Sequence record: PP882707.1
DNA: 41,129 nucleotides
DNA from: Escherichia phage vB_EcoS_P1338
Strand: one strand, 5' to 3'
The number at the start of each line of letters is the position of its first letter. The first letter of the stretch is position 1. The notes beneath the pieces were generated by a model. It worked only from the letters and a program-made list of their open reading frames with translations, did not search any database and had not been told where the DNA came from. Below are positions 3,470 through 38,992 of this stretch, one piece after another. Position numbers and translations under genes: made by a program.

Positions 3470-3500
3470 ATCATAAAGACCACTAGATGTAGTGGCCTTG
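3470..3500 (-). promoter_or_regulatory. stem-loop between gene 18 and gene 18.5, candidate RNase III processing site (R18.5-like)
   Basis: inverted repeat GGCCACTA...TAGTGGTC in the intergenic leader. Confidence 0.3.
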
Positions 3501-3510
3501 AGTTATTCCA

Positions 3511-3780
3511 TCAGTTCAGCATGTACTTCTCATCTTCAGTGAGACCATCAGCGCCCACTAGGTTCTGGTACTCTTCGAGTCCATCTGCCAGTCCACCAAG
3601 GATGTTACGGTCTGGCTGTAACTTGGAGACTTGGAACTTGTGGCGCTCTAACAGTTTCCCGATAGCGTTGTACAGTTGAGGTGTGCGCTTATCGTCATCC
3701 TGAAGGTCTTTCAGCATACGTTGAGCCATCTCAGTGTCCAGCATCTCAAGGAATTGAATCAAAGATTTATCGTTAGACAT
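3511..3780 (-). CDS. gp18: terminase small subunit (DNA packaging protein A)
   Basis: 89 aa, same size and position as T7 gp18; ATG start. Confidence 0.8.
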   Translation of the reverse strand: MSNDKSLIQFLEMLDTEMAQRMLKDLQDDDKRTPQLYNAIGKLLERHKFQVSKLQPDRNILGGLADGLEEYQNLVGADGLTEDEKYMLN

Positions 3781-4133: not shown

Positions 4134-6845
4134 TTAATCAGCGTAAAGCATTAAGAACATAATAAGCTCTTCATAACGGATTCCATACCGTACACCGGCT
4201 GGTTTGGTTACTACAACCCTTTCTAGCGTTTCCGGGTTAATGTTTACTTCAGTAGATTCTTCCCATACATCCTTACACCAGAATGCATAATCCTCTGGAT
4301 TAAGTCCATGTTTAGTAAGAATAGAGCCGACCGTTTGAGCACCAACACCGAAGTGAATACGTGCAGATGCTCCCCCCTTAAGTTCTATAGCGTCAGTAAA
4401 CTTGTAGCGAATAATATTCTTACGAATTTCATTAGCCGCATCTCTTTCCGCACTCTCATTCACTGCTGGGGTTTTTTTCTTCAGTGTTTCATCGGAAGTA
4501 ACAATGGTGCTTGAAGCAGCATAAACAGCACTCCACCTGTGGCCTGCATACCCCAGCACTGTAGAGTTATCGGCAGCAGGTAAAATAGCATTATACCCTT
4601 CAATAATGAGGTCACCATTAGGGCTACCAGAAAACGATTTACCATCATAACTAGTAAGGGTGATTCCCTTAGTGCCCTCAGTAGTTGTTAACATAATACC
4701 AGCATTGGTAGCACCCAAGAGCTGAATATCACTATTATCATTACGCAAATCCTGCACAGGTGCTTCAAGTACAGTTGACGTGAATTTCCATTTCGTATCA
4801 GAAAAAAGTTCGACCGGTTGCACGTCATCCTTCTGGTACATCATGGCTTTAACACCGGAAGTTTTACGTCTTACACCGATGGCGTTTGGTTGTGAGCCAG
4901 ACCAGTTAGATGAGAAGGTAAATCCATCAAATTCCACTACAGACTCATAAGGATTGCTGGTATCGTTATTGATTGGTTCTGTAATAAAAATCCATCCCCA
5001 GTCGAAATAGTTATTATAAGTCCCTACGTTAGCATCTATCTGATACGCACGGGTGCACACCTCCCCATAGTAACCGTAGAATCTCAGGTTCCCGGCAACT
5101 TGTGAGTCTGAGCTTACGGTTTTAACCACACGCACACCACACGGTACATCTGCTGGTCCAGTTGTTTTGGTTATATTCTCACAAGAACCACCAAACACAC
5201 GAAGTGAGTCCGTGCTTTCAATCCAGAACGCACAGTTTCCCGTTACGTGAATTGGGTTGTAAATAGTGATTCTGGTGTTGTTGTTGTCGCCTGAAACACT
5301 CCGGTTGAATCTAAACCCGCAGTCAACGTTTTCAAATACTGGATTTTTTATGGTGTGATAATATGCAGCACTATTAGCCCCAAAAACTGTTGGTCCCGGT
5401 TGCAGTAACACCCCTACAGAGACGTCTGTCGCTTTTGGGTTGTTTAGCTGACAAAACTGTTGCGATACACGTGCAGTAGTTTGTGTGAGGTCTTCCGGGC
5501 TTATTGCGTATGCCACTACTTTTGTGAAACCATCTGGATTTATTACCGCAGGGTTAGTTACGATGCAGAAATCATGGCTCATTCTTAAGCATGTGATGCC
5601 AGAAGCTCCCGCTACGATTGTTGTTCCGGTGAAATCAATATACCTTGTAGACGTAACATCCTGCGTATACGAGCCATCGAATTTCATTACAAGACTTTGT
5701 GTTATGCGATATCTCGCACCTACTCTTCCTGTTAATTTACCAAACGGCACAATCTCCAACCACGACAATGCCGCCAGCATCGCGGAGGTATCATTATTTA
5801 TCCCGTCGCCAATAGCACCGAACTCTTCAAATGACTTTACTGTCGTAGCCCGATGAGCAATCTGGTCAATTGTTGCACCATGCTTTGTTAGATCAGTTCT
5901 AATAGACGCATCACCAACACTAACCCACTTCCCTAATCCAATCCCACCGGAAGTTTCAGGAGTTGAACCAGCAGGGATGTTCTTTGGAAGCGTACCATCC
6001 CAGCGGTAATACTCACCCTCCTCTTCCCACAGTAGTACCTCGTTCCAGGTTATAACGTTGAAGCCTTTCTCGAAGGAGCGACGGGTAACATATCCAATTC
6101 GAGCAGATGCCTTGATACTCTCAGCGATTCGTCGTGCTTCATCCTCGCTATCCTTAGCGTTGCCAGCATAGCTACCAGCAGATGCTGCATATTGTCCAGA
6201 AGTATTCTTGAACTGCTCGGCTTCATTCCGGAATTCATTAGCCTCATCGCGCCATTGCTTTGCGTTCGTAGCGTGGGTGCTGGACTCGTTCTTAAAGCCC
6301 TCCGCTTTATTTCTGAAAGTCTCAGCCTCATTGCGGAACTGTAGGGCCTCATTACGTGCCTGCCATGAGTTCTGGTTCATGGTCTTAAGTTGACCAAACG
6401 GAACAGCGTCTAGGTCATCCACGGCGTTCGCTAGGTTCACGATACGACGACCACGTGCATCCAAGTGACCATCATTATTGACCCCAATGGTATCCGCAGT
6501 TAGGTCTCGTGCTTCTTCAGCAACGTGAAGCGTTTGAATCTGTGCAATGTTCAGGTCATATGCGCGAAGGATTGAGCCATCAGCAAAGTCAACCAGACGG
6601 TCTGTCGCGGAGGTGAAACGACGAATCTCAATGGAGTAATATCCATCAGCAGCCGTCCATGCACGAGTTGTAGTGATTTGTGTCTTAGTGGTGAACCGAT
6701 AGTCCTGATTTAGAACCAGTTCCTTACGGTCTTTACCAATTAGAGTTACCGTCACAAACTTACGCGCTAAGTATTCAAAGGTGATTGCAAAGTCCACAGC
6801 ACCTGTTAGCGGATAAGTCATTACGGTACGAATTTTAAGAGCCAT
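4134..6845 (-). CDS. gp17: tail fiber / tailspike: T7 gp17-like N-terminal anchor, beta-helix depolymerase-like central domain, C-terminal intramolecular chaperone-like domain
   Basis: 903 aa; first ~200 aa align with remembered T7 gp17 (FEYLARKF, RLVDFADGSILRAYDLN, VNNDGHLDARGRRIVNLANAVDD); from ~aa 335 FEEFGAIGDGINNDTSAMLAAL (pectate-lyase-type motif); near aa 784 SDETLKKK resembling the Ser-Lys autocleavage motif of tailspike C-terminal chaperones. Confidence 0.9.
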   Translation of the reverse strand: MALKIRTVMTYPLTGAVDFAITFEYLARKFVTVTLIGKDRKELVLNQDYRFTTKTQITTTRAWTAADGYYSIEIRRFTSATDRLVDFADGSILRAYDLNIAQIQTLHVAEEARDLTADTIGVNNDGHLDARGRRIVNLANAVDDLDAVPFGQLKTMNQNSWQARNEALQFRNEAETFRNKAEGFKNESSTHATNAKQWRDEANEFRNEAEQFKNTSGQYAASAGSYAGNAKDSEDEARRIAESIKASARIGYVTRRSFEKGFNVITWNEVLLWEEEGEYYRWDGTLPKNIPAGSTPETSGGIGLGKWVSVGDASIRTDLTKHGATIDQIAHRATTVKSFEEFGAIGDGINNDTSAMLAALSWLEIVPFGKLTGRVGARYRITQSLVMKFDGSYTQDVTSTRYIDFTGTTIVAGASGITCLRMSHDFCIVTNPAVINPDGFTKVVAYAISPEDLTQTTARVSQQFCQLNNPKATDVSVGVLLQPGPTVFGANSAAYYHTIKNPVFENVDCGFRFNRSVSGDNNNTRITIYNPIHVTGNCAFWIESTDSLRVFGGSCENITKTTGPADVPCGVRVVKTVSSDSQVAGNLRFYGYYGEVCTRAYQIDANVGTYNNYFDWGWIFITEPINNDTSNPYESVVEFDGFTFSSNWSGSQPNAIGVRRKTSGVKAMMYQKDDVQPVELFSDTKWKFTSTVLEAPVQDLRNDNSDIQLLGATNAGIMLTTTEGTKGITLTSYDGKSFSGSPNGDLIIEGYNAILPAADNSTVLGYAGHRWSAVYAASSTIVTSDETLKKKTPAVNESAERDAANEIRKNIIRYKFTDAIELKGGASARIHFGVGAQTVGSILTKHGLNPEDYAFWCKDVWEESTEVNINPETLERVVVTKPAGVRYGIRYEELIMFLMLYAD

Positions 6846-9900: not shown

Positions 9901-10862
9901 CCAAGTCCAGCTTCAGCAGCCTTAGCGTCAGCCTCGAAGTTCTCGTTAGCCAGCTTGATTAGCTCATCAAGGTTCTCAGCGGAACCGCCAAGCACAACGT
10001 TCATGTACGCAGGGTTCTTCACTTCTGTGCGAATCTTATCGAGTTCTTCAGGCGACCAAATATGACTATTAAACCATGTCGGTTGAAGTACATCAGTGAG
10101 CACATCAAAACCATTGTCACGCTTACCAGCACGGAAGGCAACACCCAATGTTGAGTTGGAGAGTTCTGCTTCAGCAGCACTACCGAATCCGAAGAAGGTT
10201 GAACGCTCATTGGCTTCGTCAAGAGTTGTTCCTTTTGCTTCCCAATAGTCTTTACCGAACGGCTGATTGGGAGCGGCCTGTTCTTTACCTTGAAAGGACA
10301 TTGAGTGAGACTCAGGGAGTTCTGTAGTTACCTTTCCTTTCTTCCCGATACCACTCATAGCAGCATCGAACGGAATCCCTTTACCCTTTGGGGTGATACC
10401 ACCGAAGGACTCAATGTCACCACTCTTAGGAGACTTAGCGACATCCAGAAGTGAGCGCAAATAGTTACGCCCTTCATCCCCAATACCAGCAAAGTTACCG
10501 GAGTCGTAGGCTTCCAGTTGAGGCTTACCATTTTGGCCTTCGCCTTGGTTGTACGCAAGGGCAGCTTTCAGTTCGTCCCCGTTGTATTTCTTAACGAGGT
10601 CTGCAAGGTAACGAGCACCAGCATCAATAGACTTAGCCGGGTCGTTGAAGTCCTCATCGTTCTGGAGACCGTAAGCCTTACCAGTTGCCTTGGTGAACTG
10701 CATGACACCTCTCGGTCCTGTTGGCGATTGAGCCGTAGGCTTAAAGCGGGATTCTACCCAACCGACCTTCCGAAGAAGGCCATAGGAGACTCCATGTGTG
10801 TCAGCAGCTTGTTGGAATAACGCATCATATTCATGCGGTTCGTTCGGGTTATACTTATCCAC
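6915..10862 (-). CDS. gp16: internal virion protein D with N-terminal lytic transglycosylase domain
   Basis: 1315 aa (T7 gp16 about 1318); GTG start preceded by GGAGG; N-terminus MDKY...GVSYGLLRKVGWVESRF...GVMQFTKATGKAYGL is the SLT motif. Confidence 0.95.
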   Translation of the reverse strand: MDKYNPNEPHEYDALFQQAADTHGVSYGLLRKVGWVESRFKPTAQSPTGPRGVMQFTKATGKAYGLQNDEDFNDPAKSIDAGARYLADLVKKYNGDELKAALAYNQGEGQNGKPQLEAYDSGNFAGIGDEGRNYLRSLLDVAKSPKSGDIESFGGITPKGKGIPFDAAMSGIGKKGKVTTELPESHSMSFQGKEQAAPNQPFGKDYWEAKGTTLDEANERSTFFGFGSAAEAELSNSTLGVAFRAGKRDNGFDVLTDVLQPTWFNSHIWSPEELDKIRTEVKNPAYMNVVLGGSAENLDELIKLANENFEADAKAAEAGLGAKLSAGLIGAGVDPLTYVPLAGTTAKGFKLVNKALMVGAQAGALNVASEGLRTSIAGGHAHYAEAALAGMLLAGGLTAVADGVAAGLRKSGAEQIENPFSATQMRFEARETARNTGGYDASRMPPSEDRVFSQHNGVEYAPLETEPGAVVLRDGSIISDTNLANPMTAREFAEVDPERAAWGLPMRGLSEIGLRTLRSEHAEIRGLAKDLVRSPTGMESGSHGKFGATASDIKERLHSTNQRTYNDLYGAMKEAMADPEWSVGMFKSGAQGARQEIYRRVAVAIERPELQANLTKAERKVMDIMKEHFDLKREMMENPSMFGNKATSIFPNSRHKGTYVPHVYSREAKQLYSQALGGSDGLQEAIAASWMTSYRSRPEVKARVDEHLAETLGIDPKAVTEEMVMKHASDKAYGIAKTDEFNSSSVIDDNIEGLVGIENNSFLEARNLFDSDMPVTLPNGQQFSVNDLRDFDMKHVMPAYDRRVDGDIAIMGGTGKTTAELKDSIMALDKKSEGKGTMKGEVEALKDTVKILTGRARRNQDTVGDTMVRALSDMSFFTKNAYMGLQNLTEISGMLSKGNTRAMLHGIPVLRDLAFRNKPVSGKELKELHSMVFGKEFDDLIRPTRQDIIQRLRESTDTPDVAAKVVGSIKHTTQELAARSPLTKFLNGTSNYLLDMARQGVMGDVVTHAITGKGANKWIKGDMLKSASISKEQWEGIQALIRENVTRGEDGKFTFKDKRKLANDPRAMDLWRLADKVADETMLRPHKVSLQDSHAFGATAKLVLQFKSFVIKSMNSKFIRSGNEAFKNHRAMDMALTYAISGGLAGSYYVAQAHLKSAGLPKEQQKDYLKKALDPKMIAYAAASRSSHLGSPLSIANFAMGAAGYDQGLMVRSTILPKGDDKRERNKAVTSRDMGDSIMGAIGEQIPALGFAGATLAAGRNAYGVLMAPNKVTEREMMTGLMNAHREMIPNDPISQQMLIKFYEANGVHIKADKK

Positions 10863-14276: not shown

Positions 14277-16658
14277 TTAGATACCAGAAGAGCGACGCAG
14301 GTAGTTACCTTCCCAGCCACAACCAATCACGTTAAGTGGGGTCGTGTGGTCGGAGATAATACGCACTTCGTTCAACTTGGCGTTACCAGACACGGGGAAC
14401 CGGAACTGCCCAGTACCAACGTTGAGTCCACCAGTGCGTAAGGCATTTGAACCCAACCTAGCTCCTGCCATGTCATAGCTGAAAAGACGTGAGGTGTTCT
14501 CTACTTCCACAACGAACGCACCAGAATCCTCATAGTTGACCCATGCGCGCCGAAGCTGTAAGCGACCAATGTCCTCGGTAGCTGTTGAGCCATCATCCTC
14601 TGTCTTCTTGATGAGGAACTTTGAGAACACATACCGAAAGTCAATAGCCAATCCAATGTACACCTTCTCACCCTCTCGGTTCCCATCAAGGACCAAGCGA
14701 GGTTCACCATTAGGCCATCCACCATGCGGCTCATCTAACCATGATACCTTACCATCCATCGCCACAATGTAGAACTTACCTAAATAGTTCTTCATTCCGT
14801 AGAATTGACTTGGATAGATAACAGTCTCATACGTGTCATCATCGTAGGAACCATAAGGGATTGTTATTTCCAGCTTGTTATCTATGTAGATGCGGTAAGG
14901 TTCTTCAGGGTAGTCAATGGAGTTCTTTGTGAAGTGTGCCCGTGCCATCCACGTATGGGACTGGTTGCGTAACAGAAGGTACATAGTGGAACCAATAGAA
15001 TCACAAGCCAATACAGTTACGTTACTCCCTAGTTCCCAATGAGACCACGACTGTTGCACATTTTCCTCATTCAAGTACAGAAATTTGTGCATGAAGATTT
15101 TGCTTGGGGCGTTTTCGGATAACACCGAAACGAAGTTCTCAGTGCCAGAGCCTCGAATGGAGAACACACCATTAGGAATGTAGCTAGGAACGTGAGCACT
15201 TATGTCCTCCGCAGACTTCACGGAGCTAACATCCTGTACAGCATAGTATCGGTTGATTGATGTATAGGATGCACGAGGTGACGCAAAGTAGACACCACGC
15301 CCAATACCAAAAGGTCTCGCCCTGTCTGACACATCGAACTCGGTCGTTAGGTTCAACTCAACTGACTTCGGTGAGAGGATACCAGAGGCAGATAATACGA
15401 ACTGTGCTTGGTCAGACCATAGGAGCAACTCTTCGGAGAACGGTACAGCATATTTAAGCGTACTGATTCGGTTGTGTGACACAGCAACGTCGATTGGGTC
15501 ATCATCGGATAGGTTGGCAACCGATGCAGGGAACAGTGAGAAATACTTGGATGTACGAGACATCACAATGTTTTCACCAGCAAGAAACCCTAAGCGGTTC
15601 CTGAAGAAGAACACATCGTTAATCCGCTGGTCTACGATAGACGGGTCGGGGTTAGTATTCATGTCACCACACTTGCGCTCATCCCATGGCAAGGCTTCCA
15701 TCTTAAAGGAACCATCGGCCTGTCGAATCAATGCGTGTGGCATGGTTGCCCCATTGAGTCCCTTCTGTACTCCCCATCCGGCTACTTCCTTCCACACTTT
15801 ACGTGCTGCATCGTACTGTACATAGAACTCATCGGAAGTCTTAGAGGTGTCGCCAACGATTTGTACGGAGTATCCATTAGGAGCCTCAGAGGGTAACTTA
15901 GTGAATGACTGGCTGGTGTGCATTACCGCAGACATCAACTGTCCACCATAACCATCCTCTACCTCGACCTTCCAGATTGGTTCGTCACCTCGTGACACAA
16001 TATGAATGAACCCAGCACCCTCGTTGACAGTCCATCCCCAAGTGTTTGCACCTCCTTCTCGAAGTAGCTGTGCCATCTTCTTAACGAGCCATTGTGCATC
16101 CGTCTGTTCAACTTCAGTGGCATTGGCACCATCAGCAATCTTATAGGACGCAGAGATACCATTCAGTCTAATCGTAAAGGTACGACCATACTGACCACCA
16201 CGGATGTTAATGAGACACTCACCGTCTTCTCGAATAGTGTAGATAGGGTCTTTGTTGGCTTGAACAACCTTAGAGCGGTTCACTACGAACGTGTAGTCTG
16301 CCACAGTTACCATCCTTAAGTCATCCCTAGGGTTAGCACAGTTAGCGTATGAAGTGTCACCATGTACAACATACTCACGCCCATTGAGGTCAAATACTTT
16401 GATACCGCTTCCAGTGAACACAACGTAATACTGTTCGACGCTGTCACGGTTTATTAGGTGAACTAAAGGTGCGCCACCAAGGAACCCAGCGTCACCAATA
16501 GTTTTCGTAAAGATGAAAGGTGGCCTCTTCTGGAGACCTTCAGTTTCAGACGACCATCCGTTAATCTGTTCAGCGCCCTGCTCGGGGAACCTTAAGATGT
16601 CTGGTTGTTGACTGATACCGCCTTTCAGGTTCTTGACGGATTGTGAAATAAGAGCCAT
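14277..16658 (-). CDS. gp12: tail tubular protein B
   Basis: track ORF 14277..16724 trimmed to the internal ATG giving MALISQSVKNLKGGISQQPDILR (T7 gp12 N-terminus); AAGGAGGT RBS before this ATG; 793 aa. Confidence 0.95.
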   Translation of the reverse strand: MALISQSVKNLKGGISQQPDILRFPEQGAEQINGWSSETEGLQKRPPFIFTKTIGDAGFLGGAPLVHLINRDSVEQYYVVFTGSGIKVFDLNGREYVVHGDTSYANCANPRDDLRMVTVADYTFVVNRSKVVQANKDPIYTIREDGECLINIRGGQYGRTFTIRLNGISASYKIADGANATEVEQTDAQWLVKKMAQLLREGGANTWGWTVNEGAGFIHIVSRGDEPIWKVEVEDGYGGQLMSAVMHTSQSFTKLPSEAPNGYSVQIVGDTSKTSDEFYVQYDAARKVWKEVAGWGVQKGLNGATMPHALIRQADGSFKMEALPWDERKCGDMNTNPDPSIVDQRINDVFFFRNRLGFLAGENIVMSRTSKYFSLFPASVANLSDDDPIDVAVSHNRISTLKYAVPFSEELLLWSDQAQFVLSASGILSPKSVELNLTTEFDVSDRARPFGIGRGVYFASPRASYTSINRYYAVQDVSSVKSAEDISAHVPSYIPNGVFSIRGSGTENFVSVLSENAPSKIFMHKFLYLNEENVQQSWSHWELGSNVTVLACDSIGSTMYLLLRNQSHTWMARAHFTKNSIDYPEEPYRIYIDNKLEITIPYGSYDDDTYETVIYPSQFYGMKNYLGKFYIVAMDGKVSWLDEPHGGWPNGEPRLVLDGNREGEKVYIGLAIDFRYVFSKFLIKKTEDDGSTATEDIGRLQLRRAWVNYEDSGAFVVEVENTSRLFSYDMAGARLGSNALRTGGLNVGTGQFRFPVSGNAKLNEVRIISDHTTPLNVIGCGWEGNYLRRSSGI

Positions 16659-24566: not shown

Positions 24567-26681
24567 TTAGTGACATACCGCCCAATTCGGACCCATCTTT
24601 CCTTCAGTATCTAACTGACACCGGAAGTTAAAGTGGTCGCCTACCCAACGCATAGCCTGTTGAGATACTTCGATTACAACTTTGGCAATCTCTTCTGTAC
24701 GGCAAGCAAGCTGTTGCTCATCATGAATCCATCCCATAAGGCAGAAGTCACCATCCCATCCGTGTTTGTAGCCCATCTCAAGGAGCATCTCTTCTGTCTC
24801 AACAATCCACAGTTTACAAATCAGAGCACCAGCAGACTGCAACAAGGTGTTCAACGCAGCGTGAGGACTACGGACGTGTACTTTACGACCATCCAAGCCA
24901 CGAACCCAACGGCGCTTCCAAGTTACTTTCTGTTCGCCACCAACCCACTTGGAGTCCTTGACGAGTGTCCCTGTGATTGCTTCACGTAACGCAGCGATAG
25001 CCGGAGTTTGCTCAAGGAAGTTCTTGATGAGTCGCTTACCATCTTCGGCAGTGCCACCAACAATCTGTCCAATCTTCGCAGCACCAGCACCATAGAGGAA
25101 CCCATAGATAAACGTCTTAGCATTATCACGAGTAGGCAGACCAGCAGCCAATTGGTTCTTCGTATGGATGTCACCAGTGAGGATAGTCTCAACGTACTCA
25201 CCCTCATCATAACGATACATGAAGTGGCCCAAGCAACGTAGCTCAAGGCCGGACGCATCCACACCAACTTGAATCCAAGGGTCTGGCTTACCGTCTTTCA
25301 TGTTGTGCTCGGCACCGAAAGCAGCACGGCAAGGTTCACCATAAGCAGCACGGATTGAAGGCACCTGTGCCACGTTAGGGAAACTATGGGTTGCACGACC
25401 AGTTACCGCACCGTTCGGGTTAACGCTTCCGTGAATACGACCATCGTCTCCAATCATTCGGAGCCATCCGTTATCACCTTCAGCAACCTGACCAATACGC
25501 TTCTGAATCATAAGGTATTCTTTAATTAACTCAATGCAACGTTGTGCATCAGGGTCGTCTACCTTAACGTGCTCTAAGACCTCATCGTCTACCTTTGGTG
25601 CACCACTAGGAGTGAACTCAACGGGAACCCAGCCAGCCTTGGTGAGAACACGAGTGATGTGGTCTCGGCTCGCAGGGTTAAACACAACGTGCTCAACCGG
25701 AGTATACGGAGCACCCTCAACGTAATCGCGGGTATCCAACTCACACGGTTCTAAGCCTTCACGTTGCTTCTTGTTCTTAGGCTTCTTAAAGATGCCACCC
25801 TGTTTCGGATACTTCACACGAGGATACTTGGTGAGCGGCTTTCCGGTACGAGGATGCCTGAATGCTTCAGTACCGCCCTTAGCGGAGTACCATGAGCCAA
25901 ACGTATTGGTTAACTCTACGAGTAGCTCACCACGTCTGCCAGCGAGTTCTGCGTAGAGATTCTCCAAGGACTTGATGTCAATAGGAAAACCGTTACGTTC
26001 CATCTTAGCTAACAACCATGCAGCATCATGTTCCAGTTTGACAGCCTCAAGGCTACCATTCCAGAAACGGTCTGCTTCTGTGCTTCCAGCGGGTGTCTCG
26101 TTAGGGAAATAGAAAGTGTTACTACACAGTTTCTCAAAGAGTGCCTTGGTGACTACAACGTCTTGAACGTTATATTCCATCATGTCTTCGTTGAAGAACA
26201 GCCACTCCATCCCGTCTTCGTATTCATCACCAGACTCTTCCAGTGACTTCTTAAAGTCGTCCTTGTACTCACCCTTCATTTCACCCAAGCGGTAGCCCCA
26301 TGCTTCCAGAGCGTGAGACCCAAAGCGTTGACCTGGTAGCTTGCCAGCACGAAGCAGACCAGCATCGGTGTCTTTGATGTTAGAGTAAATCAGTCGGGAC
26401 ATCACTAAGGTGTCCAAGACGTTCTCTTTCGGGAACTTAACGTCACGATTAAGAATCAGCTTTGCCAGCTTCTCGATAACCGGAACGTCATACTTGTGCC
26501 CGTTGTGAAACACAATGAGACCACCGCGAGCAACCTCAGCTTCGAGTGCATCAATGTATGCCCCAAAGTCATCAGGTCGATAACGGATGTACTGGTCAGT
26601 TGTGTAGTCGTAAGTCACCGCACAGTGAAATTGACTAACGTTGTGCAGCAACCCGTTTGTTTCGATGTCGGATAGTAACAT
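24567..26681 (-). CDS. gp5: DNA polymerase (family A) with 3'-5' exonuclease domain
   Basis: 704 aa, same length as T7 gp5; conserved blocks recognisable along the whole protein. Confidence 0.98.
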   Translation of the reverse strand: MLLSDIETNGLLHNVSQFHCAVTYDYTTDQYIRYRPDDFGAYIDALEAEVARGGLIVFHNGHKYDVPVIEKLAKLILNRDVKFPKENVLDTLVMSRLIYSNIKDTDAGLLRAGKLPGQRFGSHALEAWGYRLGEMKGEYKDDFKKSLEESGDEYEDGMEWLFFNEDMMEYNVQDVVVTKALFEKLCSNTFYFPNETPAGSTEADRFWNGSLEAVKLEHDAAWLLAKMERNGFPIDIKSLENLYAELAGRRGELLVELTNTFGSWYSAKGGTEAFRHPRTGKPLTKYPRVKYPKQGGIFKKPKNKKQREGLEPCELDTRDYVEGAPYTPVEHVVFNPASRDHITRVLTKAGWVPVEFTPSGAPKVDDEVLEHVKVDDPDAQRCIELIKEYLMIQKRIGQVAEGDNGWLRMIGDDGRIHGSVNPNGAVTGRATHSFPNVAQVPSIRAAYGEPCRAAFGAEHNMKDGKPDPWIQVGVDASGLELRCLGHFMYRYDEGEYVETILTGDIHTKNQLAAGLPTRDNAKTFIYGFLYGAGAAKIGQIVGGTAEDGKRLIKNFLEQTPAIAALREAITGTLVKDSKWVGGEQKVTWKRRWVRGLDGRKVHVRSPHAALNTLLQSAGALICKLWIVETEEMLLEMGYKHGWDGDFCLMGWIHDEQQLACRTEEIAKVVIEVSQQAMRWVGDHFNFRCQLDTEGKMGPNWAVCH

Positions 26682-26693
26682 TGTGTTTACTCC

Positions 26694-27110
26694 TTAAAAT
26701 GTAGATTTATGGTAGCCCATGAAGTTCTTCGGGTCAATCACACGCAGGTTCTTGTGGTTCATCTTGTGGTACTGAATACCAGCGACTGTACCCATTGCGT
26801 CAATACGTGTCACACGGGAACACCAAATGTCAGTCCCTTCGACCTTACGGACATACCAAATATCTGCGTTGCTGGTTGAGGTGCAGAAGTCCCCAGCCTT
26901 GATGTGGGTCATCTTGTCTGCATCGAAAGTCTGCATACCAACACTACCGCTAGTGGCTTTAGGTTTCACCCATTGACCACGGGAGCGAGTCCACCCTAAG
27001 TTCTTCAGGATGTGTACCGCCGAGTCACGAGCACATTCATACTCTTTAACGTCTGCCAGTTCAGCTTCCAGTTTAGAGATTTCAGCTTCGATTACATTAC
27101 GATTACGCAT
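26694..27110 (-). CDS. gp4.7: hypothetical protein at the T7 gene 4.7 position
   Basis: 138 aa (T7 gp4.7 135), synteny. Confidence 0.7.
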   Translation of the reverse strand: MRNRNVIEAEISKLEAELADVKEYECARDSAVHILKNLGWTRSRGQWVKPKATSGSVGMQTFDADKMTHIKAGDFCTSTSNADIWYVRKVEGTDIWCSRVTRIDAMGTVAGIQYHKMNHKNLRVIDPKNFMGYHKSTF

Positions 27111-27150
27111 AGTGTTGTTCTCCCATTAGTTAGTTGAATAGATTTCATAC

Positions 27151-27200
27151 AAAAGTTAATCACGAAGGCCACCATTAAGATGACCTTTAGTTTAACTCTT
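27151..27200 (-). promoter_or_regulatory. conserved 50-nt hairpin element before gene 4.7, candidate RNase III site (R4.7-like); copy 1 of a 50-bp direct repeat
   Basis: aaaagttaatcacgaaggccaccattaagatgacctttagtttaactctt; imperfect long stem with internal loop; second copy at 34101..34150 differs at 1 nt. Confidence 0.55.
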
Positions 27201-27501
27201 ACTCTTCACATTTGTCAGCGAGCATGTTGCTCTCAGACTCCACAGCATTAGCCAGCAGAACCTGACGCACATTGTCTTCACCTACAGCAACGGAAGCAGC
27301 TACAGCAACGGAAGCCAGAAGACGACCTGCCTGTGCATCATCAAGAGTCACACGCTGTGTATGCGCCTTGGTGGACTTAGAGTCCTTCCAACGGTAGACC
27401 AGAGTGACCTTGCCATTGCGGACGTTGATGTGCACTCGACGAGCATACTGGTCAATGGTGTCGGACAGACGGATAGTGTTGCCGGGAAATTTAATAGCCA
27501 T
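27199..27501 (-). CDS. gp4.5: small protein at the T7 gene 4.5 position
   Basis: 100 aa, synteny. Confidence 0.7.
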   Translation of the reverse strand: MAIKFPGNTIRLSDTIDQYARRVHINVRNGKVTLVYRWKDSKSTKAHTQRVTLDDAQAGRLLASVAVAASVAVGEDNVRQVLLANAVESESNMLADKCEE

Positions 27502-32561: not shown

Positions 32562-32594
32562 CGCAAAAAGGCCAGCCCCGTTAAGGACTGACCA
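32562..32594 (-). terminator. intrinsic terminator (TE-like early terminator)
   Basis: minus strand GGTCAGTCC-TTAACG-GGGCTGGCC followed by TTTTTGCGTTT; 9-bp stem with G-U pairs plus U-tract. Confidence 0.6.
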
Positions 32595-32602
32595 TTAATT
32601 AC

Positions 32603-33097
32603 TTATAGCTCCAATAGAAGTTTGTTGCGCGCTGCTACAGCCTCGTCAAGTGACTTATGATATGAAACATAACGTCTGCCAAACTTCCTAATTGAGACGG
32701 TGTAGAGGTTCCTATCCTGTCTCTTGTTTATATGCTTAAGTCCCAGCTTGTTAGTACAGTAGGTACCTTTGTTCTGGTTATTCTCAGCACTTGTTACCAC
32801 TCTAAGATTCTCTATAAGGTTGTTCTGCTTGTTCCTGTCAATATGGTCTACCTGTAAACCATCTGGTATAGGTCCATTGGTCAGTTCCCACACTACTCGA
32901 TGGACTCTCAAGTGATGGGCCTTTCCTTCCACTCTGACAGTCAAAGTCCAATATCCAGTTTTCTTTAGAGAACCAACAGGCTTACCATCTAGGCGAGAGA
33001 GGCCACTAGGAGCCTCCCTGTTAACCTTAAATCTTTTCGCTACGATTTCCCTCAACCCCTCTGAAGCAGGTGAAGGAGGGATGTCTAAGGCTCCCAT
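32603..33097 (-). CDS. HNH endonuclease with C-terminal AP2-like DNA-binding domain
   Basis: 164 aa; GGAGG RBS; HHLRVHRVVWE...VDHIDRNKQNNLIENLRVVTSAENNQNK (HNH) followed by YTVSIRKFGRRYVSYHKSLDEAVAARNK (AP2-like); start overlaps the last ~70 nt of the ligase gene. Confidence 0.85.
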   Translation of the reverse strand: MGALDIPPSPASEGLREIVAKRFKVNREAPSGLSRLDGKPVGSLKKTGYWTLTVRVEGKAHHLRVHRVVWELTNGPIPDGLQVDHIDRNKQNNLIENLRVVTSAENNQNKGTYCTNKLGLKHINKRQDRNLYTVSIRKFGRRYVSYHKSLDEAVAARNKLLLEL

Positions 33098-34061
33098 CTT
33101 TTGTTTCCTCCATGTAGTTTACTTGGCACTGCCAGCCCTCATAAGGATTGACCCCACCGAGGATATATGTGTCAGTGTTACAGGCTTCCGTGAACTCATC
33201 CATCAACGCTTGGCTGATATTGTTAGCGGAGACTACGCGACCGGACTCTAAGAGAACCTCGAAGCCAATCACTTTGCCTTCATTAGCGAGACCTTTAGTC
33301 CCCCAATTGAGTCCAACGATAATACCGTCAGCTTCATTCTCAGGCTTCATCTTCCACCAGCCAGACTTCTTGCCACGCTTGTAGACTTCCAGCGGGTCTT
33401 TGACGACCAGACCTTCATGACCATCGGCACGGGCTTTCTCGTAGAGTTCCTGAAGTTCTACCATGTCGTAGACTTCCTTGGCTTCAGAGAGTTCCCAAGT
33501 GATTTCCGGGAAGTGTTCACTAAGAACCGGAATGAGGGAACGCACATGCTCTTGCATCAGGAGGGACATAACGCCATACTCTTTGCCTTCTACCATATCG
33601 TGATACGGCATAGCAGCATACAGAACAACCTTAAGTTTCTTAGGGTCTAAGCGGAAGTCTACTTTACTCCCCTTGAGAGGCTCTACTCCACCAATATCAA
33701 ATCCACAATTTGTCTTCTTGAGCCACTTGGTACGCAGTAGGCCAGACCCTGTGTTGAAGTCTACGCCTTTGACCATCAGTTCACCATCCAGCATGAAGCC
33801 ATCAGGGAAAATCCAGCGGTCATCTTTGAGAACATTAGCCCAGCGTTGGTCGAACCCATTAAGGTGCTCAAGCGCGGGGATGGTCTTAGAGACACGGGAC
33901 AGCCACAGGCAGTCAGCCGTATTGTCAACCACGATGTTACCACGCACACCATCATGCTTAGTGTCAGCAATCAGGTAGCCAGCTTTGTCGAGTGCTTTCT
34001 TAATGGCAGACTCAACGTAGGATACAGCTTTAAAAGGGTTAGTCTTGAATGTGATTTCCAT
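33027..34061 (-). CDS. gp1.3: ATP-dependent DNA ligase
   Basis: 344 aa; adenylation motif KHDGVRG; TNPFKAVSYVESAIKKALDKAGYLIA...HEGLVVKDP...GKKSGWWKMKPENEADG matches T7 ligase by recollection. Confidence 0.95.
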   Translation of the reverse strand: MEITFKTNPFKAVSYVESAIKKALDKAGYLIADTKHDGVRGNIVVDNTADCLWLSRVSKTIPALEHLNGFDQRWANVLKDDRWIFPDGFMLDGELMVKGVDFNTGSGLLRTKWLKKTNCGFDIGGVEPLKGSKVDFRLDPKKLKVVLYAAMPYHDMVEGKEYGVMSLLMQEHVRSLIPVLSEHFPEITWELSEAKEVYDMVELQELYEKARADGHEGLVVKDPLEVYKRGKKSGWWKMKPENEADGIIVGLNWGTKGLANEGKVIGFEVLLESGRVVSANNISQALMDEFTEACNTDTYILGGVNPYEGWQCQVNYMEETKDGSLRHPSFTCFRGVEGNRSEKI

Positions 34062-34100
34062 GATGGAACTCCTTTAGTGTGTGTCGGTTATTAAGTAATC

Positions 34101-34150
34101 AAAAGTTAATCACAAAGGCCACCATTAAGATGACCTTTAGTTTAACTCTT
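34101..34150 (-). promoter_or_regulatory. conserved 50-nt hairpin element in the ligase leader, candidate RNase III site (R1.3-like); copy 2 of the 50-bp repeat
   Basis: aaaagttaatcacaaaggccaccattaagatgacctttagtttaactctt, 49/50 identical to 27151..27200. Confidence 0.55.
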
Positions 34151-34171
34151 TCGCAATAGTGAGTCGTATTA
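34149..34171 (-). promoter_or_regulatory. T7-type promoter upstream of the ligase gene (phi1.3-like)
   Basis: minus strand TAATACGACTCACTATTGCGAAA; overlaps the gene 1.2 stop. Confidence 0.75.
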
Positions 34172-34441
34172 CTTCCAGTGCTTCATATCACTGTGAACCT
34201 TGCGGAGCCATTCAGTCTGTGCATTACAGCGAACGTCTTCGTCTGACTGTTCGAAACACTTAGCGGTCAGCATTAAGCCATTCCGTAAGACCACTCGAAG
34301 TGTCTCTCCTGCGACCATTCGTCGCTGTGCGAAGTCCTCATAACGATAAGTCTCAACGACCACATTTGCATCGTGGTCTTCTTTAAGTCTCTCGATAGCG
34401 TCTTTGTATGCCATTAAGTTACCACTGTATAAGCGACCCAT
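34169..34441 (-). CDS. gp1.2: small protein at the T7 gene 1.2 position (dGTPase inhibitor in T7)
   Basis: 90 aa; MGRLYSGNL N-terminus and C-terminal WK as in remembered T7 gp1.2. Confidence 0.85.
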   Translation of the reverse strand: MGRLYSGNLMAYKDAIERLKEDHDANVVVETYRYEDFAQRRMVAGETLRVVLRNGLMLTAKCFEQSDEDVRCNAQTEWLRKVHSDMKHWK

Positions 34442-34572: not shown

Positions 34573-34632
34573 AATGTTGTTTCCTCTTAGAGTTAGAACT
34601 TAAAGTTATCTTAAAGTTTAGGAAGCCCATAG

Positions 34633-34655
34633 GCTCCCAATAGTGAGTCGTATTA
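34633..34655 (-). promoter_or_regulatory. T7-type promoter just downstream of the RNAP gene (phi1.1-like)
   Basis: minus strand TAATACGACTCACTATTGGGAGC. Confidence 0.8.
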
Positions 34656-34662
34656 GATTTCG

Positions 34663-37314: not shown

Positions 37315-37344
37315 TGTTGCCTCACGTTGTTAAGAAAGTTTATC

Positions 37345-37378
37345 TATAAAGGCCAGCAGTCAGTGCCGACCTTGAAGA
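37345..37378 (-). promoter_or_regulatory. hairpin between gene 0.7 and gene 1, candidate RNase III site (R1-like)
   Basis: minus strand AAGGTCGGCA-CTGAC-TGCTGGCCTT, ~10-bp stem with two G-U pairs. Confidence 0.4.
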
Positions 37379-37387
37379 TACACCTTA

Positions 37388-38491
37388 TCAGCCCATAAGA
37401 TGTGCGTCAATCAGTTTGTCAATCATCAGTGGTGCGCCAGCTTGGATAGCCAGACCGTCAGCCACTTGCCACTTGAAGCCGTTCACTTGGTCAACCTTGC
37501 GTACCGTTGCGTTGCCATTGCGAAGCCGGAAGTCATGCCGAACCGACCCCATGAGTATCTCAGCGCGGCGCTCATTTCTTTCGATTGCACCACGTTCCCT
37601 ACGGATTGCCATAAAGTGTAAGCGGTCACGTTTAGCCACACGTTCGGCGTGTTTACGGTTACGCTTGCGGCGCTTCATGTTGGCCTTGCGGTTGATGCGG
37701 AACGTGCCGTTCAGGTCACGCCTTGCCTTACGGTTGCGACACCGTTCAATGATGCGCTCGTTAGCTATCGCCTCGACCTCGGCAATCAGTGCATCAGGGT
37801 CTAAAGGGAAACCGTCCTCACGTTCACTGTCATGGGAGAAACTAACCGGGTCAGTGATGTACGGGACATCGTTGTCATCGAACATAATGTTCCCGTTGTG
37901 CATGTCGAAAGATGCAATGCCGTGGAAGAACTCACGAATCATCTTGCATGTCTCGATGAACTCCCTGCTAACGAACTCTTCGTACCAATCAGCATCACTG
38001 CCATAGCACTCTATGAACTCCTGTGCAGCACTCGCATATTTTGCGTGAGTGTCATTAGCGTATCGGTCGCAACTGTTCAAATGGTCCAATACAACCGTAT
38101 AGCAACCCGCATGACGTGCTACGTGATAGACGTTAGGGATACCCGCTCGGCCTTGATGCATCCTACAGAATGCAGTGTATGCAGCGCCTGAATCCTCTTT
38201 CTTAAAGCCAACCTTAATGACTCGACCCGGTAACATTTCGTGCGAGTAGGCCGCGCTGAAGTGACCATTGCCTAACATGCGGAAACCTGCATCGCACATC
38301 AGTGCACCCAATGTGTGCCACCAGTCTTGATACTCCAAGCCATTTGAGCCATCAGTATCGTTGCCATCGCTTGTCTCACCGTTCACGATGTCAGCAGCCA
38401 GTGCAACCAGAAGAGTCTGGCGCTTGTCCAGTTCGCTAATCGGGAGTGACTTGATGATTGCCAGACGTGCCTGAATGTCGGTGTAGTTCAT
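37388..38491 (-). CDS. gp0.7: serine/threonine protein kinase / host transcription shutoff protein
   Basis: 367 aa; HQDWWHTLGALMCDAGFRMLGNGHFSAAYSH...VIKVGFKKEDSGAAYTAFCRM...IASFDMHNGNIMF...VPYITDPVSFS matches T7 gp0.7 by recollection. Confidence 0.9.
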   Translation of the reverse strand: MNYTDIQARLAIIKSLPISELDKRQTLLVALAADIVNGETSDGNDTDGSNGLEYQDWWHTLGALMCDAGFRMLGNGHFSAAYSHEMLPGRVIKVGFKKEDSGAAYTAFCRMHQGRAGIPNVYHVARHAGCYTVVLDHLNSCDRYANDTHAKYASAAQEFIECYGSDADWYEEFVSREFIETCKMIREFFHGIASFDMHNGNIMFDDNDVPYITDPVSFSHDSEREDGFPLDPDALIAEVEAIANERIIERCRNRKARRDLNGTFRINRKANMKRRKRNRKHAERVAKRDRLHFMAIRRERGAIERNERRAEILMGSVRHDFRLRNGNATVRKVDQVNGFKWQVADGLAIQAGAPLMIDKLIDAHLMG

Positions 38492-38525
38492 TAGATTGTG
38501 TCCTATTTAGTTAAACTTTAAGAGA
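38476..38525 (-). repeat. copy 1 of a repeated translation-initiation cassette (leader + ATG + first codons) heading gene 0.7
   Basis: core cattagattgtgtcctatttagtt shared with 38769..38792 and 38951..38974; extended ~50-nt match to the copy at 38938..38992 including codons MNYTD. Confidence 0.8.
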
Positions 38526-38570: not shown

Positions 38571-38771
38571 TCACCTTACAATCTCTGCGTCCAATACTGA
38601 TACTCTAACTAATATCCCAGCGCCATTTTTAACTATGAATCCGTCTGAATTTGGCGCTATTTCAAAAACAAAATATTCTTCACCTGATTTAAGTAAGTAT
38701 TCATCAATATCAATTCTAGGTTTATTATTTCTTGGTTTGAATTTAATAAATAGCGGTCGTTCGTTAATCAT
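38571..38771 (-). CDS. hypothetical 66-aa protein, strongly AT-rich gene headed by cassette copy 2
   Basis: MINERPLFIKFKPRNNKPRIDIDEYLLKSGEEYFVFEIAPNSDGFIVKNGAGILVRVSVLDAEIVR; about 32 percent G+C by hand count against roughly 50 percent for the flanking genes. Confidence 0.55.
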   Translation of the reverse strand: MINERPLFIKFKPRNNKPRIDIDEYLLKSGEEYFVFEIAPNSDGFIVKNGAGILVRVSVLDAEIVR

Positions 38772-38800
38772 TAGATTGTGTCCTATTTAGTTTAAGAAAG
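38769..38800 (-). repeat. copy 2 of the repeated translation-initiation cassette
   Basis: cattagattgtgtcctatttagtt followed by a divergent leader. Confidence 0.8.
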
Positions 38801-38953
38801 AGAATTGAGGATTAAACGCGCTTCTTTACATGCCTTTGCTACCTTTCTGGCGGGTATCCTCTTCAGGTGCAATGCCTTCATTAGAGTCTCGTTGGTAGCA
38901 CCATATGCCAGTGTGTACAGAACTTTCTTAGTTAAACTATCGGTGTAGTTCAT
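38792..38953 (-). CDS. hypothetical 53-aa protein headed by cassette copy 3, sharing the MNYTD start of gp0.7
   Basis: hand-derived ORF MNYTDSLTKKVLYTLAYGATNETLMKALHLKRIPARKVAKACKEARLILNSLS; first 15 coding nt identical to gene 0.7. Confidence 0.4.
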   Translation of the reverse strand: MNYTDSLTKKVLYTLAYGATNETLMKALHLKRIPARKVAKACKEARLILNSLS

Positions 38954-38992
38954 TAGATTGTGTCCTATTTAGTTAGTTAAACTTTAAGAGAG
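38938..38992 (-). repeat. copy 3 of the repeated translation-initiation cassette
   Basis: gtgtagttcattagattgtgtcctatttagttagttaaactttaagagag; differs from copy 1 by a 4-nt insertion. Confidence 0.8.

Follow-up and report, generated by a model that had tools for sequence, protein, structure and literature searches.

Ten RNase III sites are present in bacteriophage T7, and six of them lie in intergenic regions that also contain a promoter (PMC9135205). Internal loops hold the Escherichia coli enzyme to a single cut, and the 3' hairpin that results shields the RNA from 3'-5' decay (PMC1540722). The geometry of such a loop is known for the T7 R1.1 substrate, where it has 4 nt on one strand and 5 nt on the other (PMC6121014). 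Here we describe a pair of hairpins of this kind in Escherichia phage vB_EcoS_P1338 (sequence record PP882707.1), all 41,129 nucleotides of which were analysed as one stretch, called the window from here on. The hairpins are the two copies, A and B, of a nearly perfect 51-bp direct repeat. We hold it to be very likely (probability roughly 0.88) that they are the orthologues of R1.3 and R4.7 of T7 and T3, i.e.: paralogous signals for processing by the host RNase III, with cleavage expected by homology. As an element the repeat is of no new kind; it is conserved and commonplace in these phages.

The window is ~90-96% identical to BA14, 285P, P483, PZJ0206 and other Berlinvirus (Autographiviridae, Studiervirinae), and contains 10-11 copies of AATAGTGAGTCGTATTA, which on the other strand reads as a T7-type promoter. 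We conclude that it is the complete genome of a T7-like phage of Berlinvirus type (BA14/285P-like), shown in reverse so that its genes lie on the minus strand. On the plus strand the repeat occupies 27150-27200 and 34100-34150, 6950 bp apart, with 50 of 51 positions identical. An earlier note on this DNA had reported 49 identities out of 50 between 27151-27200 and 34101-34150, which is right and falls inside this larger repeat. The lone mismatch (27164 G, 34114 A) reads as C versus U in the transcript, and the longest exact core spans 36 bp (27165-27200 and 34115-34150). Such a length is foreign to shuffled versions of the window (n=20), in which the longest exact repeat measured 13-18 bp; a 23-nt core, with up to three mismatches allowed, was found twice against 0.00 expected by chance.

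Both copies are placed like their T7 counterparts. The same note had assigned them to 5' leaders, one before gene 4.7 and the other between a phi1.3-type promoter and the ligase gene, and this is correct once the minus strand is read. Copy A stands between the TAATACGACTCACTATT promoter and the ATG of the DNA ligase gene (34061), and ends 39 nt before this codon. The promoter itself reads TAATACGACTCACTATT followed by GCGAAA (34171..34149), with its +1 inferred at 34154, and overlaps the stop codon of gene 1.2; the hairpin starts ~4-5 nt past this +1. At the homologous position phi1.3 is annotated in BA14, T7, T3 and phiYeO3-12. Copy B fills the space between the stop codon of gene 4.5 (TAA, 27201-27199), with which the copy B region starts, and the ATG of gene 4.7 (27110). 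The resulting orders, phi1.3-hairpin-ligase and gene 4.5 stop-hairpin-(phi4.7)-gene 4.7, are those of T7, T3 and BA14. In T3 (AJ318471) and phiYeO3-12 (AJ251805) R1.3 also abuts or overlaps the 3' end of phi1.3 and R4.7 also begins at the gene 4.5 stop, but these two phages lack gene 4.7 and their R4.7 precedes gene 5.

As sense RNA, both copies fold stably: copy A reaches -21.5 kcal/mol (z -4.9) and copy B -18.8 kcal/mol (z -4.0), values that none of 200 shuffles equalled in either case. The antisense RNAs, read from the plus strand, give -7.7 and -7.9 kcal/mol (z -1.8 and -1.3), and the DNA folds of the two copies -7.9 and -6.4 kcal/mol (z about -2.6). The asymmetry arises because several of the pairs are G-U, and it points to an element that works as RNA, in the sense transcript. 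Its architecture comprises a lower stem of 9-10 bp (AAGAGUUAA/UUAACUUUU), an internal loop, an upper stem of 9 bp (AAGGUCAUC/GGUGGCCUU) and the hairpin loop UUAAU. In the centroid structure of copy B the lower stem has 10 bp, the internal loop 4 nt and 5 nt (ACUA/CGUGA), the upper stem 9 bp and the hairpin loop 5 nt; copy A folds in the same way with one more A-U pair and a narrower internal loop. The single C/U difference sits precisely there, at the foot of the upper stem on its 3' side, where the U of copy A adds the pair and the C of copy B leaves the 4/5 loop of the R1.1 substrate. Two coaxial helices of ~9-10 bp, an asymmetric internal loop and a small hairpin loop, all on the transcribed strand, are the build of T7-group RNase III signals, and both copies have it; T7 R1.3 itself differs from them in its nearly continuous helix geometry. 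The long imperfect stem with an internal loop that the earlier note had described is hence a stable and strand-specific RNA fold in both copies, and the folding that it had proposed as a check did not return the unstable structure that it had named as contrary evidence.

Homology with T7 extends to the sequence. The AAGGUC...GGCCUU upper stem recurs in the hairpins of the T7 phi1.3-ligase leader and 4.5-4.7 spacer, and BA14 carries both too. The upper stem begins with the same 8 bp (AAGGUCAU/GUGGCCUU) as that of the T7 R1.1 hairpin (alignment A1), and the cleavage-site element ACU(C/A)AAGGUC ... GGCCUU(N)(A/G)UGA, common to the R1.1, R1.3 and R4.7 leaders of T7, is present in both copies. The lower stems, in contrast, are wholly different in sequence from those of T7 and have been kept by compensatory changes. 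We followed these in an IMG/VR scan anchored on gp4.5, which gave 37 loci, most of them covering both sites; motif extraction from the loci gave 78 distinct sites, including R1.1, R1.3 and R4.7 of T7 itself (locus L022, 39,937 bp). In the alignment of these sites 91.2% of cells are paired under the two-stem structure versus 78.2% in shuffles (0/500), and sliding the registers lowers the value to 30-53%. All nine lower-stem pairs (9/9) show compensatory double changes, with a covariation score of 0.406 versus 0.185, so that compensatory substitution, as seen in RNase III signals of the T7 group, is a property of this family.

A covariance model (R1) built from the family alignment has five matches in the window, all on the coding strand and at the R0.3, R1, R1.3, R4.7 and R18.5 map positions (Table 1). 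As curated reference we used the GenBank records of T3 and phiYeO3-12, in which R1.1, R1.3, R3.8 and R4.7 are stem_loop features attributed to RNase III, because the T7 RefSeq and V01146 records, as consulted, contain no such features. The model matches T3 and phiYeO3-12 six times: all six matches coincide with curated R1.1, R1.3 and R4.7 (6/6), and none lies elsewhere in those loci. The same profile that recovers these independently curated sites also recovers both copies of the repeat. Related loci totalling 709 kb gave 118 matches (E <= 0.01), every one of them on the coding strand. Differences from the reference phages do exist: the R1.3 sites of T3 and phiYeO3-12 score lower (~45 bits) and are much less like their own R4.7, and in both phages R1.1 and a short R3.8 are present, for which the model gives no match in the window. 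With synteny, sequence homology, structure and covariation all in agreement, the architecture and map position of R4.7 and R1.3, which the earlier note had proposed for the two copies, are well supported.

The cut positions in T7 can be related to the same box. R1.1, R1.3 and R4.7 are reported to be cut at 5887, 6448 and 13892 (Dunn & Studier 1983), and in the T7 sequence each of these positions lies exactly 3 nt after GGCCUU. The constant offset supports these coordinates as well as our alignment.

By analogy, transcripts made by the phage RNA polymerase would form, at each copy, two coaxial helices of ~9-10 bp around the asymmetric internal loop. Bound to the helix, RNase III would break a single phosphodiester on the 3' side of the internal loop, 3 nt past GGCCUU as at T7 R1.1, R1.3 and R4.7; the scissile bonds predicted by homology lie between 34112 and 34111 in copy A and between 27162 and 27161 in copy B. 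These cuts would split polycistronic read-through transcripts of class II, separating gene 1.2 from the ligase gene and gene 4.5 from gene 4.7. In the fragment on the 5' side, which ends in gene 1.2 or 4.5, the upper hairpin would remain at the 3' end as a guard against 3'-5' exonucleases, while the downstream mRNA, for the ligase or gene 4.7, would begin with a single-stranded 5'-monophosphate leader ~35-50 nt before the start codon. From RNA initiated at phi1.3, the R1.3 cut would trim a 5' hairpin of ~43 nt (+1 at 34154 to 34112). At R4.7 the weak phi4.7 lies downstream, and transcripts initiated there do not include the copy B hairpin; the site would be carried by read-through transcripts only. 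Cleavage is demonstrated in T7; in the window we infer it, along with the exact cut position and the effects on mRNA stability.

Several points weigh against the assignment to R1.3 and R4.7. Cleavage experiments were found for neither this phage nor any Berlinvirus. The T7 cut coordinates could be checked only indirectly, via their 3-nt offset from GGCCUU. The invariance of the AAGGUC/GGCCUU box is partly a matter of ascertainment, the sites having been collected by the box motif, although this leaves the covariation of the lower stem unaffected. No Rfam 15 family reached its gathering threshold in the whole window, so that curated support comes from the T3 and phiYeO3-12 annotations only, and those of phiYeO3-12 carry the label 'putative'. 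The Rfam result means only that no curated model matches, and is not evidence against processing by RNase III. Separately, literature searches for R4.7 together with R1.3 and RNase III, and for Kvp1 together with RNase III, returned nothing, and RNase III sites are not annotated in either region of the BA14 record, at the PZJ0206 sites or at R1.3 of P151.

Hairpins with a conserved box need not be substrates of RNase III. They could be mainly structural elements of the mRNA, such as 3' stabilisers, 5' caps or a site for another phage or host protein, and go uncut by RNase III in this phage, in which case the conservation of the box and of the loop strands ACU(A/C) and (U/C)(G/A)UGA would reflect that other partner. 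The box and loop strands are indeed conserved more than the lower stem, which covaries freely, and the title of Chelladurai et al. indicates that cleavage specificity does not fully account for the conservation of the box. However, the T7 homologues have this very box and are classic RNase III substrates in vivo and in vitro (PMC6121014; PMC1540722), and part of the invariance results from the way in which the sites were collected. The R0.3-position site, found by the model, has a different box (AAGGGU.../...GCCCUU). We give purely structural hairpins a slim chance. Slimmer still is the chance that they stop, attenuate or pause transcription by the RNA polymerase of the host or the phage. Their stability as hairpins and the CUUUUG at the end of each 3' arm would suit such a role, but the U run is paired with AAGAG in the lower stem and leaves no free tail. 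Intrinsic (rho-independent) termination was rejected, as neither copy has the GC-rich stem and free U run of such terminators; the terminator scan reports neither of them, yet it detects a canonical GC-rich hairpin with a T-run at the position of the early terminator TE (32593..32570). A terminator 4 nt past phi1.3 would also defeat that promoter, and in T3 the homologues are annotated as RNase III sites while TE is annotated apart from them.

The repeat might also matter primarily as DNA, its RNA structure being incidental: as a recent duplication or gene-conversion patch, or as a cruciform palindrome, it would act as a recombination substrate, a replication signal or a defence trigger. Two 51-bp copies, 98% identical and in direct orientation, invite this idea, as does the fact that T7 RNase III-site palindromes are reported to be DNA triggers of DdmABC (Lamassu) (PMC11707656). 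The nearest relative of the window switches across both hairpins, and in one relative the 4.7 locus has a hairpin variant and a leader of R1.3 type, which shows that the two sites do exchange DNA (both observations are detailed below). Set against this are the weakness of the DNA folds compared to those of sense RNA, the reliance of the pairing on G-U pairs found on the transcribed strand only, and the compensatory changes that keep RNA pairing across genera, with every model match in the related loci on the coding strand. Orthologues of both sites occur in T7, T3 and Berlinvirus alike, so the sites are ancient and no recent duplication, and the similarity within genomes does not exceed that between genomes. 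A primarily DNA-level role is accordingly very improbable, and the cruciform was rejected on the DNA folding energies and the strand asymmetry.

With processing by RNase III as the preferred reading, the likeness of the two copies can be placed in a wider frame. The near-identity of R1.3 and R4.7 that had drawn the attention of the earlier note is genuine, but it is genus-wide and not special to this genome. Within a genome the two sites are 82-96% identical (mean 90%) in 9 Berlinvirus-like loci, ~61% in 13 T7-like loci (only ~60% in T7) and ~62% in 7 other relatives, one of which, L036, reaches 85%. High similarity is a trait of the genus, and the 98% of the window is its extreme: here the two sites differ at 1 position, the fewest seen, versus 2-9 in the relatives. 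The stems are common to nearly all Berlinvirus relatives (285P, PZJ0206, BA14, BSP161, P483, P151, Yep-phi and others), with substitutions in a few R1.3 alleles (P694/P483/P151 type), and most of the variation among the sites of the genus falls in the loops. Within the genus, the variable position is U in all R1.3 orthologues and varies among R4.7 orthologues. Relatives have one hairpin loop at R1.3 and another at R4.7 (e.g. UUAAU vs UUAACG in 285P), whereas the window has UUAAU in both, and this loop match alone is particular to it. The two copies are near-identical, then, because both stems are conserved across the genus and the loop alleles happen to match here. Concerted evolution or ongoing gene conversion throughout the genus was rejected, the mean number of R1.3-R4.7 differences in Berlinvirus being 4.5 within genomes and 5.0 between them.

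The loop match could have arisen through a short conversion patch (UUAACG to UUAAU, by one substitution and one deletion) or through mosaic assortment of alleles. The R1.3 allele of the window is identical to R1.3 of 285P (L007) and PZJ0206 (L043), and its R4.7 allele is identical to R4.7 of P151, whose own R1.3 is of another type. Signs of exchange come from locus L016 (IMGVR_UViG_2974609713_000001), where, at 10300-10400, an R4.7 hairpin with the R1.3-type U is followed by an R1.3-type leader, GATTACTTAAT...CACTAAAGGAG. This leader, GATTACTTAATGAACACTAAAGGAG, lies directly upstream of gene 4.7, and there is no phi4.7 promoter. Judged from the sequence, L016 is apparently a case of ectopic exchange (leader replacement) between two RNase III sites.

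When the window is compared to six relatives (L006, L007, L013, L014, L015 and L043) in 350-nt windows, its nearest relative changes across both hairpins. As an example, the identity of 285P and PZJ0206 to the window rises from 82-89% before R1.3 to 97% after it, and falls from 86-87% before R4.7 to 78% after it. This is suggestive of mosaic boundaries in these intergenic regions, at a resolution of 350 nt that cannot place breakpoints inside the hairpins. It is conceivable, if doubtful as a whole, that R1.1, R1.3 and R4.7 have been homogenised in Berlinvirus (~90% between R1.3 and R4.7 vs ~61% in T7-like phages) into portable patches of homology; that occasional ectopic gene conversion moves loop alleles, leaders and promoters between genes, as in L016, where gene 4.7 would have gained an R1.3-type leader and lost phi4.7; that the pair in the window is a recent short conversion patch; and that the sites are preferred crossover points for mosaicism.

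We also considered the suggestion of the earlier note that the repeats are a substrate for recombinational deletion of the replication block between them. Physically it is plausible: the copies have the tens of bp of near-identity in direct orientation that mark such substrates, as documented for T7 direct repeats; they are 51 bp long with a 36-bp exact core and enclose genes 2, 2.5, 3 and 4. The suggestion is nevertheless unsupported, as a specific and a relaxed pattern scan of IMG/VR for a junction of the phi1.3 promoter, hairpin and gene 4.7 leader both gave 0 matches, and a literature search on direct-repeat deletions in T7 found nothing relevant. Genes 2, 2.5, 3 and 4 are essential in T7; the product of such a deletion would not be viable alone, and absence of the junction is to be expected. 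Deletion genomes, of ~34.2 kb, could arise as defective by-products only. For phage engineering this still has a practical side, as 50 bp of direct homology around the replication genes could yield defective deletion genomes in high-titre stocks.

Recognition of the two copies adds 2 of at least 5 signals for RNase III processing to the map of a T7-like genome that is otherwise unannotated, and predicts mRNA ends for the ligase gene and gene 4.7. The conspicuous 51-bp repeat becomes a conserved regulatory RNA element instead of an assembly artefact or a mobile element. RNase III signals have long been known, and what is mildly new is the likeness of the paralogous R1.3 and R4.7 at the level of a genus, with evidence for occasional exchange between them; the leader swap of L016 offers a small and tractable case of paralogous RNA signals trading sequence in a lytic phage genome of 40 kb. 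Hairpins of this family present in several copies could also be a liability against defences of the DdmABC type: palindromes of T7 RNase III sites, and similar ones of a T7-like vibriophage, are reported to trigger DdmABC (Lamassu) of V. cholerae as DNA (PMC11707656).

Table 1. Coordinates in the window of the two repeat copies, the further matches of the covariance model, and the neighbouring promoters and genes (ORF, open reading frame).
Feature	Position	Strand	Basis
Copy A, predicted R1.3-type RNase III processing hairpin (repeat proper 34100-34150)	34098..34152	-	covariance model 68.8 bits, E 6e-12
Copy B, predicted R4.7-type RNase III processing hairpin (repeat proper 27150-27200)	27148..27202	-	covariance model 67.4 bits, E 1e-11
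Third family member, R1 position	37332..37388	-	covariance model 49.8 bits, E 6e-8; motif match; ORF context
Fourth family member, R18.5 position, between ORFs of 89 aa and 148 aa	3459..3514	-	covariance model 49.4 bits, E 8e-8
Fifth, weaker family member, R0.3 position, just upstream of Ocr-like ORF of 117 aa	40106..40159	-	covariance model 20.5 bits, E 0.1
phi1.3-type phage RNA polymerase promoter TAATACGACTCACTATTGCGAAA	34149..34171	-	member of 10-11-copy promoter repeat family
Gene 1.2, dGTPase inhibitor, upstream of copy A	34169..34441	-	ORF; PHROG 2949, E 4e-36
Gene 1.3, ATP-dependent DNA ligase, downstream of copy A	33027..34061	-	ORF; PHROG 114, E 1e-88
Gene 4.5, toxin/antitoxin inhibitor family, upstream of copy B	27199..27501	-	ORF; Pfam PF17574 TA_inhibitor (Gp4.5), E 7e-30
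Degenerate phi4.7-type promoter CTATTCAACTAACTAATGGGAGA, downstream of copy B	27119..27141	-	aligned with annotated phi4.7 of BA14, one C>A; weak promoter-family member
Gene 4.7, downstream of copy B	26694..27110	-	ORF; PHROG 4023, E 3e-56; annotated gp4.7 in BA14
DNA polymerase gene, after gene 4.7	24567-26681	-	

Among the further matches, the site at the R1 position begins at the stop codon of an ORF resembling the 0.7 kinase and lies upstream of the RNA polymerase gene, and the R0.3-position site was absent from the training set of the model. The model also matches a longer-looped hairpin at 14899-14976 of the T7 locus L022 and at equivalent positions in most other T7-like loci. This hairpin, which is outside the training set, lies at what we take to be the T7 R6.5 position, and no equivalent was matched in the window or in the Berlinvirus-like loci. 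Between genes 1 and 1.1, the window lacks gene 1.05 and the R1.1-type hairpin (34581-34656, minus strand) that 285P, PZJ0206, BA14, BSP161 and P483 have. Its phi1.1 leader has just a short GGGAGCC/GGCUUCC hairpin at +1, with no covariance-model match. A T7-like locus, L024, has two tandem copies of the R1.1 hairpin (3487-3509 and 3561-3583), 74 nt apart.

The C>A change that sets the phi4.7-type promoter apart from that of BA14 is at about position -7, in the region of polymerase specificity (CTCACTA to CTAACTA), and may weaken the promoter; phi4.7 of Yep-phi (L009) shows the same change. Overlapping the 3' end of the ligase gene is an ORF of 164 aa with an HNH_3 endonuclease domain (32603-33097, minus strand; compare gene 1.45 of phiYeO3-12), after which comes the GC-rich hairpin with T-run at the TE position (minus strand). 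Two distant relatives, L036 (7023-7049) and L039 (6993-7019), share a conserved hairpin, AAGGTCGG...CCGGCCTT, ~3.3 kb upstream of gene 4.5. The early region of the window holds a direct repeat of its own, 36 bp and exact (38478-38513 and 38940-38975), with a third copy at 38758-38793 (75%). On the minus strand it reads as a shared leader, TAACTAAATAGGACACAATCTA, plus ATGAACTACACCGA; a kinase-like ORF of 367 aa (37388-38491) and an ORF of 53 aa (38792-38953) have identical ribosome-binding regions and the same first five codons, MNYTD.

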